DNA of 64,000 nucleotides from Escherichia coli (GTDB lineage Bacteria; Pseudomonadota; Gammaproteobacteria; Enterobacterales; Enterobacteriaceae). This document shows positions 33,742 through 41,403 of the stretch, piece by piece. A program made the position numbers and the translations under genes. The stretch lies in NCBI RefSeq assembly GCF_003334405.1, contig NZ_QOWM01000006.1; one strand, given 5' to 3'. Numbering within the stretch: position 1 is the stretch's first letter; each line of letters starts with the position of its first letter. The notes under the pieces are model-generated. The model was not told the DNA's origin, made no database searches, and saw only the letters and a program-made list of their open reading frames with translations.

Positions 33742-34131
33742 ATGAAAAAGCTGCAAATTGCGGTAGGTATTATTCGCAACGAGAACAATGAAATCTTTAT
33801 AACGCGTCGCGCAGCAGATGCGCACATGGCGAATAAACTGGAGTTTCCCGGCGGTAAAATTGAAATGGGTGAAACGCCGGAACAGGCGGTGGTGCGTGAA
33901 CTTCAGGAAGAAGTCGGGATTACCCCCCAACATTTTTCGCTATTTGAAAAACTGGAATATGAATTCCCGGACAGGCATATAACACTGTGGTTTTGGCTGG
34001 TCGAACGCTGGGAAGGGGAGCCGTGGGGTAAAGAAGGGCAACCCGGTGAGTGGATGTCGCTGGTCGGTCTTAATGCCGATGATTTTCCGCCAGCCAATGA
34101 ACCGGTAATTGCGAAGCTTAAACGTCTGTAG
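33742..34131 (+). CDS. mutT: 8-oxo-dGTP diphosphatase MutT (Nudix), 129 aa
   Basis: 129-aa ORF with Nudix box GGKIEMGETPEQAVVRELQEEVGI. Confidence 0.96.
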   Translation: MKKLQIAVGIIRNENNEIFITRRAADAHMANKLEFPGGKIEMGETPEQAVVRELQEEVGITPQHFSLFEKLEYEFPDRHITLWFWLVERWEGEPWGKEGQPGEWMSLVGLNADDFPPANEPVIAKLKRL

Positions 34132-34212
34132 GTCAGATAAGGCGTTTTCGCCGCATCCGACATTCGCACACGATGCCTGATGCGACGCTGGCGCGTCTTA
34201 TCAGGCCTAAAG
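34129..34212. repeat. REP/BIME element, copy 1
   Basis: gtaggtcagataaggcgttttcgccgcatccgacattcgcacacgatgcctgatgcgacgctggcgcgtcttatcaggcc: canonical REP palindromic units (GCCGCATCCG / CTTATCAGGCC). Confidence 0.85.
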
Positions 34213-34243: not shown

Positions 34244-34330
<87 letters not shown>

Positions 34331-36141: not shown

Positions 36142-37185
36142 ATGCGTATTGAAGAAGATCTGAAGTTAGGTTTTAAAGACGTTCTCATCCGCCCTAAACG
36201 CTCCACTCTTAAAAGCCGTTCCGATGTTGAACTGGAACGTCAATTCACCTTCAAACATTCAGGTCAGAGCTGGTCCGGCGTGCCGATTATCGCCGCAAAT
36301 ATGGACACCGTAGGCACATTTTCTATGGCCTCTGCGCTGGCTTCTTTTGATATTTTGACTGCTGTGCATAAACACTATTCTGTCGAAGAGTGGCAAGCGT
36401 TTATCAACAATTCTTCCGCTGATGTGCTGAAACATGTGATGGTTTCTACCGGTACGTCTGATGCGGATTTCGAAAAAACTAAACAGATTCTCGACCTGAA
36501 CCCGGCATTAAACTTCGTTTGTATTGACGTGGCGAATGGTTATTCCGAACACTTCGTGCAGTTCGTTGCGAAAGCGCGTGAAGCGTGGCCGACCAAAACC
36601 ATTTGTGCTGGTAACGTAGTGACTGGTGAAATGTGTGAGGAGCTTATCCTCTCAGGTGCCGATATCGTTAAAGTTGGCATTGGCCCAGGTTCTGTTTGTA
36701 CAACTCGCGTCAAAACAGGCGTCGGTTATCCGCAACTTTCTGCGGTAATCGAATGTGCCGATGCTGCGCACGGTCTGGGCGGAATGATCGTCAGCGATGG
36801 TGGCTGCACCACGCCGGGCGATGTGGCGAAAGCCTTTGGCGGCGGTGCCGATTTCGTCATGCTTGGCGGCATGCTGGCGGGCCACGAAGAGAGCGGCGGT
36901 CGCATCGTTGAGGAGAACGGCGAGAAATTTATGCTGTTCTACGGCATGAGCTCCGAGTCTGCGATGAAACGTCACGTTGGCGGCGTTGCGGAATATCGCG
37001 CAGCAGAAGGTAAAACCGTTAAGCTGCCGCTGCGAGGCCCGGTTGAAAATACCGCGCGAGATATTTTGGGCGGCCTGCGTTCAGCTTGTACATACGTTGG
37101 GGCTTCACGCCTGAAAGAGCTGACCAAGCGCACCACGTTTATTCGTGTGCAGGAACAAGAAAACCGCATCTTCAACAACCTGTAA
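36142..37185 (+). CDS. guaC: GMP reductase, 347 aa
   Basis: 347-aa IMPDH/GMPR-family [35 protein letters not shown]... Confidence 0.97.
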
Positions 37186-37190
37186 TCTCC

Positions 37191-37220
37191 CAACGCTGGC
37201 GTGGAGCAACACGCCAGCGT
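37191..37220. terminator. Hairpin between convergent guaC and hofC, candidate bidirectional terminator
   Basis: aacgctggcgtggagcaacacgccagcgtt, a perfect 12-bp-arm inverted repeat immediately after the guaC stop. Confidence 0.6.
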
Positions 37221-38422
37221 TATCCCATCCCACTCATCGCATCGCCTAAATGGAAAATTGGCAGATACATTGCCACCACCAGCGTACCAATAATTCCTCC
37301 CGTTATGATCAGCAACGCCGGTTCCAGTAAGGCTGCGAGGTTATCCGCCAGCGCCATTGTGTTTTCCCGATGATGATGGGCGAGGTTGTCTAACATGAGA
37401 TCCAGAGAGCCGGATGCCTCTCCTGTTCTCACTAATTGCAAACAGAGCGGGCTAAACTCACCGGTATTTTTTAGCGCCAGCCAGATGGGTTGACCGTTAC
37501 TGATATCGTGCTGGATTTGTGTCAGAAGTTGCACCCAGTACGGGCAGCGCATTGTTTCTCTGACGCTCTCTACGCCCTGTAAAAAAGTAATGCCTGCACT
37601 TTGTGTCAGCGCCAGAATCGTAAAGATCTGCGTGAGTTTTTGTCCCCGCATCAGTGAACCCATAATCGGGATGCGTAACAGCAATTTCTGCCGCACTATA
37701 AGCCAGGTCGGTCGGCGCATCAGCAACTTATTGGCTATCGCCAGCAGAAAGCCGAACAACACCAGCAGCCAGCTCCATTCGCCACTAAAGTCTGCCAGCG
37801 TCATGATCCCCTGCGTTAGTGCCGGTAGTGGGGTGTTGAAGGTCTTATAGATAGCGGCAAACTCCGGCAGAACAAAATGCAGCATTGCCACAACCACCAT
37901 GATTGCCATCGCTAAAATGATGATGGGATAACGTAACGCTGATTTCACTTTGTCGGTCAACTGACGCTGGGCTTTTTGCTGACGCGCCAGTTCAAAGCAG
38001 CATTCATCCAGCTTACCGGTCAGTTCACCCGTGCGGATCATCGCCTGATAGAGCGGCGGAAATACCTCTGACCAGGGTAATAAGGCATTGGAAAAAGCAA
38101 TGCCCTGTTCGAGATCGTGCGCCAGCGATTGCAGCAACGCTTGCCATTGCTTACTGGGATGCTGTTCCGCCAGCAGAGCCAGCCCTTCAGAAAGCGTTAA
38201 CCCTGCTTTGAGTAGCGTCGCCAGTTGATGAATGACTTCCGCGCTTTTATCTCCTCGCCACTGCGCAGAATTGATGGCGATTCGCTTCAGGCTTAGTGGG
38301 GTAACCATCTGTTGCTGTAGTGCCATAAGCAGTAAAGTACGGCTCTCTGCCCATAGCATCCCATCTTGCGCATTGCCGTCGCCGGTTATGCCATGCCAGC
38401 GCCAGAGTTGCTTACTCGCCAT
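37220..38422 (-). CDS. hofC: Type IV pilus/T2SS inner-membrane platform protein (GspF/PilC family), 400 aa
   Basis: 400-aa polytopic ORF; operon with hofB and ppdD. Confidence 0.93.
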   Translation of the reverse strand: MASKQLWRWHGITGDGNAQDGMLWAESRTLLLMALQQQMVTPLSLKRIAINSAQWRGDKSAEVIHQLATLLKAGLTLSEGLALLAEQHPSKQWQALLQSLAHDLEQGIAFSNALLPWSEVFPPLYQAMIRTGELTGKLDECCFELARQQKAQRQLTDKVKSALRYPIIILAMAIMVVVAMLHFVLPEFAAIYKTFNTPLPALTQGIMTLADFSGEWSWLLVLFGFLLAIANKLLMRRPTWLIVRQKLLLRIPIMGSLMRGQKLTQIFTILALTQSAGITFLQGVESVRETMRCPYWVQLLTQIQHDISNGQPIWLALKNTGEFSPLCLQLVRTGEASGSLDLMLDNLAHHHRENTMALADNLAALLEPALLIITGGIIGTLVVAMYLPIFHLGDAMSGMG

Positions 38423-39797
38423 GCGGCATCCCCAGTACGCGGATTAACTCTTCAAAGGTGGTTAAGCCTTGCTCTACGGCCAGGCAGCCGTTTTCAAAAA
38501 GCGTACGCATACCCGCCTGTCGTGCGTGCGTTTCCAGCGATTCAACGTCGGTATTAGCGGAAATAAGCTGACGAATGACCGGCGTTATGGGCAGAACTTC
38601 AAATAAGGCCGTACGACCATAAAAACCGTGGTAGCAATGTACACAACCGGGTGCCTGCCAGTGGGGCAGCGGCGATGGCCATACATTGTCTGGAATGTGG
38701 ATGGGCTCCCCTTGCTGCCGGCGACAATGTGGGCAAAGTTTGCGTACCAGACGCTGGGCTATTACCAGCGTAAGCGCCGATGATAGCATCCAGCGGGCGA
38801 CCCCCATTTGCTGTAAACGTACCAGCGTTTCGCAGGTGGAATTAGTGTGTAGGGTAGACAACACCAGGTGACCAGTTTGCGCCGCGTTAATAGCGATCTC
38901 TGCTGTTTCGCCATCGCGGATCTCTCCGATCATGATGACGTCAGGATCCTGGCGCAATAACGCACGCAAAACGCCCTGAAAGGTGAGTCCGGCACGCGGA
39001 TGGATTTGCGTCTGGTTTAGTCCGGCTATGGGGATCTCAACTGGATCTTCGACGCTACAAATATTAATGTCAGCGGTATTCAGCTTTTGCAGGGCACTAT
39101 AAAGCGTGACCGTTTTGCCGCTGCCGGTAGGGCCAGTTACCAGCACCAGTCCCTGTGGTTGTTGCAAGGCATGAGCAAAGTCCGCCAGTTGTAACGGCTG
39201 CATTCCAAGCGTGTTGACATCCAGTGCCTGACCCACCTGCTGTAACAACCTTAATACCACCTTTTCACCACCCCGACATGGTAAGGTCGCAATACGAAAT
39301 GAGACGGCGTTTCCTGCCAGTTCGACAGTGAATTGCCCGTCCTGCGGCAGGCGATGTTCCGCAATATCCAGGTTTCCCAGCACTTTTAATCTGGCGGTTA
39401 ATGCGACTCCGGCATCCGGTGAAACATCCGGTAAAGGATGCAATACGCCGTCGATACGCAAGCGGATGCGGTAGGCATTGTCCGCTGGTTCGATATGAAT
39501 ATCAGACGCGCGTTGTTCCAGCGCAGATTGTAACGTTCGAGTTAGCAACTCTGCTTTGGGCTGATGCTTCTCCTGAACAGCTACGGGCAATGTCTGTTGT
39601 GTGCGACTGGCGTGACCTTCCATTTGTTGGCGCGTCCAGCAGGTGATCTCAATACGTTTGGTGGTAGCGAAATGCAATGCGTCCAGTAGCTCATGCGAAG
39701 GTGCATCGACTACCGCAACATGAACCACCTCTTCGCTGGCATCCAGCAAGACTCCATGATAACGCAGACACAGGGCAGTGAGCTGTGGAATATTCAT
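38412..39797 (-). CDS. hofB: Type IV pilus assembly ATPase (GspE/PilB family), 461 aa
   Basis: 461-aa ORF with Walker A GPTGSGKT and a C-terminal tetracysteine motif (CPHC...C..C). Confidence 0.94.
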   Translation of the reverse strand: MNIPQLTALCLRYHGVLLDASEEVVHVAVVDAPSHELLDALHFATTKRIEITCWTRQQMEGHASRTQQTLPVAVQEKHQPKAELLTRTLQSALEQRASDIHIEPADNAYRIRLRIDGVLHPLPDVSPDAGVALTARLKVLGNLDIAEHRLPQDGQFTVELAGNAVSFRIATLPCRGGEKVVLRLLQQVGQALDVNTLGMQPLQLADFAHALQQPQGLVLVTGPTGSGKTVTLYSALQKLNTADINICSVEDPVEIPIAGLNQTQIHPRAGLTFQGVLRALLRQDPDVIMIGEIRDGETAEIAINAAQTGHLVLSTLHTNSTCETLVRLQQMGVARWMLSSALTLVIAQRLVRKLCPHCRRQQGEPIHIPDNVWPSPLPHWQAPGCVHCYHGFYGRTALFEVLPITPVIRQLISANTDVESLETHARQAGMRTLFENGCLAVEQGLTTFEELIRVLGMPHGE

Positions 39798-39806
39798 TGC
39801 CGCTCC

Positions 39807-40247
39807 TTAGTTGGCGTCATCAAAGCGGAAGACATCTTCGCAGGCTTGCTGCAATGCGCTGTCACTTTGAATATTGCAGTTGCGCGTCCAGCCGGTGACG
39901 CCGTTTGCGTTATCCCAACCCGGTGTCATGACGACGCTTAGCCCATTGAGACTTTCTTGCCCGGTCAGCGACACCACGCCCTTTGCCACACTCATGGCTG
40001 AAACATAGCGGGTGGTGGTAGGCGAGGGAATGCCATTGCTGCCACCGTCGCAGGTATCTAATCCACCATGTTCCAGCGCGCACAACTCTACGGCGGTACG
40101 GTAAGGCACAAAGGTTTGTAGCATGTCGGTGAGTGCGGCTTTGCGCAGGTAGTTTTGATAAGCGGGAATACCAATGGCGCTTAAAATGGCAATGATGCCA
40201 ATAACCACCATCAGTTCGATAAGTGTAAAACCGCGTTGCTTGTCCAT
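39807..40247 (-). CDS. ppdD: Prepilin-peptidase-dependent type IV major pilin, 146 aa
   Basis: N-terminus MDKQRGFTLIELMVVIGIIAILSAIGIPAYQNY is a class III (type IV pilin) signal: G/F cleavage site with Glu at +5. Confidence 0.94.
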   Translation of the reverse strand: MDKQRGFTLIELMVVIGIIAILSAIGIPAYQNYLRKAALTDMLQTFVPYRTAVELCALEHGGLDTCDGGSNGIPSPTTTRYVSAMSVAKGVVSLTGQESLNGLSVVMTPGWDNANGVTGWTRNCNIQSDSALQQACEDVFRFDDAN

Positions 40248-40449
40248 CTGTTTCGCTCCTTGATTTGGTTGGCGCTACTTTGGCAAATGCCATCAGCACA
40301 GGCGAGGGGCAAAAAACGAAACGGGAAAGCAGATTCCGAGGTTTTTTATTTCGTTGCAGCGAAAGACAAGAAATTTGCGAGGCGTTACGAAGAAAGTTGG
40401 GGAAGGGGAGATTATCCGCCCGCGATGGAGCGGATAAATCTGTCAACTA

Positions 40450-41403
<954 letters not shown>

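Follow-up and report, generated by a model that had tools for sequence, protein, structure and literature searches.

The ppdD-hofB-hofC operon of a K-12-like Escherichia coli, pilin, motor and platform module of a chromosomal type IVa pilus

The locus at 37220-40247 on the minus strand is almost certainly the ppdD-hofB-hofC (hcpABC) operon, which supplies pilin, motor and platform to the chromosomal E. coli type IVa pilus, and nothing that can be read in its sequence speaks against this identification. The window (the whole stretch of DNA analyzed, 64 kb) is 99.986% identical to E. coli K-12 MG1655 at 77,303-141,303 and colinear with MG1655 from sgrR to hpt, i.e. K-12-like, and at the locus itself the DNA has no more than 2 substitutions relative to the annotated K-12 genes b0106-b0108. 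The locus is already known and ordinary, and the finding adds little; it is annotated throughout E. coli, pilin structure, regulator and reconstitution are known, and the pilus has even been repurposed as protein nanowires.

Operon structure and gene identity

Exactly three minus-strand ORFs span 37220-40247, all co-oriented and with no internal stop in any (ORF list and translation). Transcription runs from ppdD through hofB to hofC:

39807..40247, minus strand: ppdD (hcpA), major type IVa prepilin, 146 aa; NCBIfam NF007862
38412..39797, minus strand: hofB, PilB/GspE-family assembly ATPase, 461 aa, cytoplasmic; NF007755
37220..38422, minus strand: hofC, PilC/GspF-family inner-membrane platform, 400 aa; NF007861

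The ppdD and hofB genes are separated by 9 nt, with the hofB Shine-Dalgarno sequence AAGGAG overlapping the ppdD stop codon, and hofC starts before hofB ends, its ATG lying within the final 11 nt of hofB. An operon was assigned because of this gap, this overlap and the strong Shine-Dalgarno sequences preceding ppdD and hofB. Antisense ORFs of 81-95 aa within the three genes were taken as chance ORFs.

Identity was judged by NCBI curated equivalog cut-offs (NCBIfam models), and PpdD, HofB and HofC each scored above their own. A sequence-only reading of the same DNA had described three co-oriented genes for a class III prepilin, an ATPase and a platform protein, bearing FTLIE, Walker A and tetracysteine motifs, and had named frameshifts or premature stops as grounds for rejection; equivalog scores and motifs agree with these assignments, all of the motifs were located in the translations, and the three ORFs are intact. 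Its title, hofC-hofB-ppdD, had the genes right and gave them in plus-strand map order, opposite to the direction of transcription.

Pilin, ATPase and platform proteins

PpdD begins with the 6-residue leader MDKQRG followed by FTLIELMVVIGIIAILSAIGI, the -1, +1 and +5 positions being Gly, Phe and Glu, so that the mature N-terminus reads FTLIE(LMVV); this is a class III signal peptide (TIGR02532 score 35.9, cut-off 16.3). A single N-terminal hydrophobic helix was predicted from hydropathy (segment 9-27), and four Cys residues are present, at 56, 66, 124 and 136. Residues 1-145 aligned to positions 1-144 of the 145 in NF007862 (269.3 bits, cut-off 138). The protein is identical to K-12 PpdD, and its mature part matches 139 of the 140 residues of the enterohemorrhagic E. 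coli (EHEC) pilus chain 6GV9_A, one residue being different. Equivalog score, Cys positions and this match fit a globular domain with a C-terminal disulfide loop. The PpdD filament structure has been solved (PDB 6GV9, 6GMS), and processed 15-kDa PpdD was seen in K-12 after sxy induction (PMC3330819).

HofB residues 2-460 aligned to positions 6-464 of the 465 in NF007755 (821.9 bits, cut-off 617). Pfam T2SSE (PF00437) spans 75-453 (E = 3e-146), preceded by a weak match to MshEN (8-69), and inside T2SSE lie all of the boxes and the tetracysteine Zn motif of a PilB/GspE-type assembly ATPase: Walker A GPTGSGKT (222), Asp box EDPVE (250), Walker B VIMIGEIRD (287), His box TGH (308), and CPHC (355) with CVHC (385). 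Residues 79-454 align with residues 195-577 of PilB 5ZFR. The N-terminal region is short, the protein having ~105-125 aa less than solved PilB chains (461 vs. 566-588 aa), and residue 75-79 of HofB aligns to residue 173-200 of those chains. Against the canonical type IV-A PilB model (TIGR02538) HofB scored 482.6, below the cut-off of 675.65, and covered only positions 160-561 of 564. These alignments place HofB among short-N-terminus relatives and outside the canonical PilB equivalogs.

HofC, identical to K-12 HofC, aligned over residues 1-399 to positions 1-401 of the 401 in NF007861 (660.8 bits, cut-off 401). Two Pfam T2SSF repeats (PF00482; 64-186 and 269-388) and three hydrophobic segments at about 167-185, 217-235 and 369-387 (hydropathy) were found, the two repeats and three transmembrane segments of a PilC/GspF platform.

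Promoter region and probable transcript ends

The features flanking the coding sequences are as follows:

40248..40449, minus strand: nadC-ppdD spacer, 202 nt, activator-dependent ppdD promoter and leader
40260-40255, minus strand: ppdD Shine-Dalgarno sequence AAGGAG, 8 nt before the ATG
40373..40394, minus strand: candidate CRP-S site TTCTTCGTAACGCCTCGCAAAT, 8/10 core bases of TGCGA-N6-TCGCA (core 40376-40391)
40409..40441, minus strand: hairpin 3' of the nadC stop codon, RNA fold -16.6 kcal/mol, z = -3.4, no clear U-tract
37191..37222, no strand assigned: perfect 13-bp hairpin between hofC and guaC, RNA fold -23.2 kcal/mol, z = -4.6, 0/200 shuffles folding as well

A sigma-70-like consensus scan of 37000-40600 found 0 matches (2.6 expected), which fits an activator-dependent promoter and gives no start site. 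The candidate CRP-S site has its center 136.5 nt upstream of the ATG of ppdD. Within the nadC-ppdD spacer it matches the core best and is the sole match with at most 2 mismatches, and it is invariant across 7 diverse strains. We infer its exact position, because core matches of this kind are no more frequent than chance predicts (34 in the 64-kb window vs. 44.8 expected). The site falls within the ppdD fragment that CRP shifts in an electrophoretic mobility shift assay, as placed by the primers (PMC1635313). In the same study Sxy induced ppdD 90-fold, and induction was abolished without crp or cyaA, so both CRP and cAMP are required; ppdD was assigned to the Sxy/CRP-S competence regulon, alongside homologues of DNA-uptake genes.

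The hairpin downstream of nadC is likely a terminator or insulator that would shield ppdD from nadC read-through. The hofC/guaC hairpin sits in a 34-nt gap between convergent genes, with a weak U-tract on both strands, and is likely a shared transcript-end structure. A simple terminator scan gave 6 matches against 4.3 expected, a chance level, and missed the hofC/guaC hairpin, which was folded separately. An Rfam search of the locus returned no RNA family.

Partner genes

As the sequence-only reading had noted for the vicinity of the locus, no secretin, prepilin peptidase, alignment-complex or other pilus or secretion gene is present; this holds for the full 64 kb, by the colinear MG1655 annotation. 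Its proposed dependence on unlinked genes was likewise borne out, and the complete absence of partners that it had raised as a counter-argument was not found in K-12 or across complete genomes. Partner genes were read in K-12 MG1655 and in the population of complete genomes. In MG1655, hofMNOPQ, ppdAB-ygdB-ppdC, pppA and gspO are annotated elsewhere in the chromosome, unlinked to ppdD-hofB-hofC. Each of hofMNOPQ and ppdAB-ygdB-ppdC was present in 5,426/5,426 complete E. coli genomes, and pppA or gspO was detectable by DNA search in 4,673 of the 5,426, some detected copies being mere remnants. The prepilin peptidase genes are thus accessory in E. coli, and all other pilus operons are core. This pairing (pppA/gspO DNA is undetectable in ~14% of genomes) might, as a long shot, point to an unrecognized peptidase or a peptidase-independent role of PpdD in those genomes.

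Comparison with known systems

E. coli K-12 b0108-b0107-b0106, known in EHEC as hcpABC (hemorrhagic coli pilus), is the same locus, with the same flanks: guaC on one side and nadC-ampD-ampE on the other. Two differences from K-12 were found. One base of the nadC-ppdD spacer, at 40288, is unlike K-12 and was not seen in six other strains compared. The single HofB substitution, K304N at position 38886, adjoins the His box; its 61-mer had 0 matches among the 5,426 complete E. coli genomes, and the substitution is also absent from the six other strains. That this private change, if it is no sequencing error, alters motor activity in this strain is a long shot.

The pilABCD competence-pilus operon of Haemophilus influenzae and Vibrio cholerae shares the pilin-ATPase-platform order, and both it and the E. 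coli operon need Sxy and CRP, the latter probably at the candidate CRP-S site; ppdD and hofB have been treated as the pilA and pilB counterparts (PMC1635313). In contrast to pilABCD, the E. coli operon ends at hofC and has no pilD, the peptidase coming from pppA or gspO, inside type II secretion islands. E. coli is without pilF2 and has not been observed to transform naturally (PMC1635313, PMC3330819). PilA, PilB and PilC of Pseudomonas aeruginosa and Myxococcus belong to the same protein families, with the same ATPase motifs, and P. aeruginosa can assemble PpdD (Sauvonnet 2000, as cited in PMC1635313). Compared with these type IVa systems, HofB has a shorter N-terminus and falls under the TIGR02538 cut-off, and PpdD has a second disulfide pair, which is typical of enterobacterial pilins (10.1101/2021.04.14.439816).

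Proposed mechanism and function

The ppdD promoter, which has no good sigma-70 consensus, is silent in ordinary culture, and its firing requires the joint action of cAMP-CRP and Sxy (TfoX) at the candidate CRP-S site of the nadC-ppdD spacer, as shown above or published. The following steps are drawn from family membership. The PpdD prepilin would enter the inner membrane and have its leader, which ends at Gly6, removed by GspO or PppA, prepilin peptidases encoded at unlinked loci; ATP hydrolysis by a HofB hexamer would drive the HofC platform, so that pilins are raised from the membrane into a helical filament. Priming of this filament would fall to the minor pilins PpdA, PpdB, YgdB and PpdC, HofMNOP would guide it through the HofQ secretin, and the output would be a retractile or adhesive fiber. 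Pili have been assembled in E. coli from ppdD together with hofBC, hofMNOPQ, ppdAB-ygdB-ppdC and gspO, and sheared from the reconstituted strains (10.1101/856302); reconstitution was also achieved by Luna Rico 2019, as cited in 10.1101/2021.04.14.439816.

The sequence-only reading called the system cryptic and poorly expressed by K-12 in the laboratory. The latter is stated in PMC1635313 and PMC2649431. The former is overstated in that regulation, processing, structure, reconstitution and roles in DNA uptake and in EHEC have been published, and the native function is partly understood.

For K-12-like strains, we lean slightly towards a role in DNA uptake or the use of DNA as a nutrient; adhesion or biofilm formation is plausible at a lower probability, and some other role is improbable. 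A broader proposal is that in every E. coli, commensal K-12-like strains among them, the pilus serves mainly as an adhesin or virulence pilus, the hemorrhagic coli pilus (HCP), and not for DNA uptake. HCP made of PpdD/HcpA mediates adherence, invasion, biofilm formation, twitching and the release of cytokines in EHEC EDL933 cultured in Minca medium (PMC2920817), and the EHEC pilin is the one that differs by a single residue from PpdD of the window. The placement of the ppdD promoter in the competence regulon argues against the proposal, as do the requirement for the HofQ secretin in DNA uptake under forced sxy expression (PMC3330819) and studies of uropathogenic E. coli in which pili were not detected (PMC2649431). 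DNA-uptake and adhesion roles can, moreover, coexist, and we regard a primarily adhesive pilus across the species as rather unlikely.

Relation to type II secretion

PGAP calls the hofB product 'type II secretion system protein GspE', which suggests another assignment: the locus would belong to a type II secretion system, in which GspE, GspF and a pseudopilus serve protein export and no pilus is built. Low E-value matches to GspE, GspF and GspG models were obtained, and the Klebsiella Pul secreton can assemble PpdD (as cited in PMC2649431). GspG, GspE and GspF indeed have pilin-like, ATPase and platform folds homologous to those of PpdD, HofB and HofC, whereas the product of ppdD-hofB-hofC is a surface pilus. 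All three matches fell below the equivalog cut-offs (GspE TIGR02533, 457.2 vs. 630.25; GspF TIGR02120, 263.7 vs. 424; GspG TIGR01710, 29.1 vs. 88.85), PpdD builds a true type IV pilus, whose structure has been solved (6GV9), the partners hofMNOPQ are PilMNOPQ-like, and a complete gspC-O cluster that includes gspE, gspF and gspG exists separately in K-12. We know of no protein whose secretion requires hofB and hofC independently of pilus formation. A type II secretion role is very improbable against the type IVa pilus module.

Conservation across E. coli

The ppdD-hofB-hofC locus was present in 5,425/5,426 complete E. coli genomes, and its coverage was 80% or more in 5,424. Among 7 diverse strains all ORFs were intact, and dN/dS was 0.10-0.11 per gene. 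Because a dN/dS of ~0.10 with intact ORFs indicates purifying selection, the locus is conserved and not decaying. That it is a silent, decaying relic, left by a pilus or competence system and now without function in E. coli, is hardly credible given this distribution and selection signature, the 90-fold induction by Sxy and the functional pili reconstituted with these genes, although a sigma-70-like promoter match is absent and occasional natural knock-outs occur. Near-universal presence, dN/dS of ~0.1 and accessory peptidase genes together make a compact case for use of the type IVa pilus system in nature. One example of a natural knock-out is strain 74-2, in which IS903B is inserted in ppdD.

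Locus and relation to K-12

The locus was the K-12 ppdD-hofB-hofC locus itself, and the operon described in the sequence-only reading was correct, already known and ordinary. The whole window was colinear with E. coli K-12 MG1655 77,303-141,303, with 8 substitutions (window positions 1939, 16273, 38886, 40288, 42785, 48890, 48949 and 50383) and one 1-nt deletion (after 56971). ORFs were listed over 34-44 kb of the window; the limits proposed for the three genes, 37220-40247, were reproduced exactly, all were on the minus strand, and they were intact as claimed, with no internal stop in the ppdD, hofB or hofC ORF.

37220-38422, minus strand, hofC ORF (400 aa)
38412-39797, minus strand, hofB ORF (461 aa)
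39807-40247, minus strand, ppdD ORF (146 aa)

In K-12 annotation these are b0106 (hofC), b0107 (hofB) and b0108 (ppdD), between guaC and nadC. Transcription runs ppdD, hofB, hofC, with a gap of 9 nt between ppdD and hofB, a hofB Shine-Dalgarno sequence (AAGGAG) overlapping the ppdD stop codon, and an 11-nt overlap of hofB and hofC. Locus GC (0.51-0.56) was the same as that of the surroundings, so there was no sign of recent import. The remaining ~60 kb held only housekeeping genes by K-12 annotation (leu, ilv and dcw clusters, secA, pdh, acnB, speDE, gcd), in agreement with the earlier claim that the neighbourhood is free of secretin, peptidase and alignment genes. Rfam naRNA4 (REP-derived nucleoid-associated RNA) was present in two copies between mutT and yacG, at 34131-34207 and 34247-34324. 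Over 27-51 kb, K-12 appears slightly more distant from the window than several natural phylogroup-A-like isolates (for the isolates, bit score ~23 below the estimated exact match, or roughly 4 mismatches vs. 6 for K-12).

PpdD and HofC had the same sequence as the K-12 proteins, and HofB carried one change, K304N (codon at 38886), four residues ahead of the His box. Position 304 was Lys in K-12 and five further diverse strains and Asn in the window, and none of the 5,426 complete E. coli genomes contained the exact 61-mer around the codon; K304N is a private allele unless it reflects a sequencing error.

Protein identity and domains

Identity was assigned with NCBIfam equivalog models, using curated cut-offs and full-length matches. 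HofC scored 660.8 with NF007861 (cut-off 401), HofB 821.9 with NF007755 (NCBI name GspE, cut-off 617), and PpdD 269.3 with NF007862 (cut-off 138). Genuine type II secretion GspE/GspF/GspG identity was rejected, all three proteins falling under those NCBIfam cut-offs, as was canonical PilB identity for HofB (TIGR02538, 482.6 against a cut-off of 675.65). PGAP labels hofB in RefSeq genomes ‘gspE: type II secretion system protein GspE’, so K-12-type genomes have two genes named gspE; this second name notwithstanding, HofB scored under the true GspE equivalog cut-off.

Every motif quoted in the earlier reading (prepilin FTLIE, Walker A, tetracysteine) was found in the translated ORFs. The PpdD N-terminus read MDKQRG/FTLIE, and mature PpdD matched the EHEC type IV pilus subunit of solved structure 6GV9 at 139/140 residues. 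HofB contained Walker A (GPTGSGKT), an Asp box, Walker B, a His box, and cysteine pairs CPHC at 355 and CVHC at 385, with Pfam matches to T2SSE (75-453) and, weakly, to MshEN (8-69); HofC contained two T2SSF repeats. Hydropathy gave 3 membrane segments for HofC, 1 for PpdD and 0 for HofB. Alignment of HofB to solved PilB and GspE ATPases started at HofB residue 75-79, and its N-terminus was ~105-125 residues shorter than in solved PilB chains. HofB has a shorter N-terminus than Pseudomonas PilB, and the E. coli locus is without the linked pilD of Haemophilus and Vibrio pilABCD; both features have been published or can be seen in reference annotation.

Partner genes and proposed assembly

In K-12, four partner sets were found, none linked to ppdD-hofB-hofC. 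Gene sets were counted among 5,426 complete E. coli genomes by DNA search.

K-12 positions of the gene sets and counts among complete E. coli genomes
ppdD-hofBC: 5,425/5,426
hofMNOPQ, adjoining mrcA: 5,426/5,426
ppdA-ppdB-ygdB-ppdC, adjoining recC: 5,426/5,426
pppA, within the remnant yghJ-yghD secretion island (L004, 5544-6353): 3,641/5,426
gspO, last in the gspC-O cluster (L005, 13544-14221): 3,159/5,426
pppA or gspO: 4,673/5,426 (sensitive DNA search; some matches are fragments)

The prepilin peptidase is the sole non-core part of the pilus machine in E. coli, the rest being present in at least 5,425 genomes. Neither pppA nor gspO was found by DNA search in ~14% of the genomes, where other peptidases may be present. 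In NZ_AP027818.1 (L014, 3248-4077) an IS1-associated deletion ran from gspC into gspO, most of which is lost, with a 75-nt remnant of it adjoining bfr; in NZ_CP117016.1 (L015, 5269-6079) a deletion left a 63-nt pppA fragment fused beside a truncated gspE.

By homology with studied type IVa pili, PpdD would insert into the inner membrane and then be cut after Gly6 by GspO or PppA. HofB on the HofC platform would polymerise PpdD into a filament, probably primed by the minor pilins PpdAB-YgdB-PpdC and led outward by HofMNOP and the HofQ secretin. After sxy induction of K-12, processed PpdD was present and hofQ was needed for sxy-dependent DNA uptake; chromosomal natural transformation was not achieved (PMC3330819). 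For surface pili in E. coli, hofB, hofC, hofMNOPQ, ppdAB-ygdB-ppdC, gspO and a pilin gene suffice (10.1101/856302), a sufficiency also credited to Luna Rico 2019, as cited in 10.1101/2021.04.14.439816. In K-12, expression of the EHEC hcpABC cluster gave surface pilin (PMC2649431), and EHEC in Minca medium produced hemorrhagic coli pili that were adhesive and pro-inflammatory (PMC2920817).

Regulation and flanking elements

A simple scan found no sigma-70 promoter-like sites in the locus (2.6 expected). The ppdD promoter fragment binds CRP weakly but specifically, and plasmid-expressed Sxy induces ppdD 90-fold, requiring crp and cAMP and with repression by glucose (Cameron and Redfield, PMC1635313). 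Within that fragment, only one match to TGCGA-N6-TCGCA with ≤2 mismatches was present.

40376-40391, minus strand, candidate CRP-S site TTCGTAACGCCTCGCA

It was centred 136.5 nt 5' of the ppdD start codon and did not vary among the 7 strains compared. Such core matches numbered 34 in the whole window vs. 44.8 expected, not above chance, so we infer the exact position of the ppdD site, putatively 40376-40391, from sequence. The nadC-ppdD spacer differed from K-12 at one base, 40288, which lies 41 nt 5' of the ppdD start codon and on the plus strand was T in the window and C in K-12 and five other compared strains. One hairpin lay directly 3' of the nadC stop codon and a perfect 13-bp hairpin filled the hofC/guaC gap, both without a good U-tract. 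A terminator-like hairpin and T-run at 40322-40348 (plus strand), antisense to the ppdD leader, may be a chance match.

Maintenance of the locus

The three ORFs were intact in 7/7 strains compared (96.9-100% identity), with mean pairwise dN/dS of 0.113 (hofC), 0.096 (hofB) and 0.100 (ppdD). These low ratios and the near-universal presence argue for purifying selection on ppdD-hofB-hofC and disfavour a relic. Strain 74-2 (NZ_CP050044.1; L011, 3113-4416) is a natural knock-out, with IS903B in ppdD at about codon 9, so that promoter and signal peptide are cut off from the remainder of the gene; PGAP nonetheless annotates a 134-aa ‘ppdD’ starting at an internal ATG.
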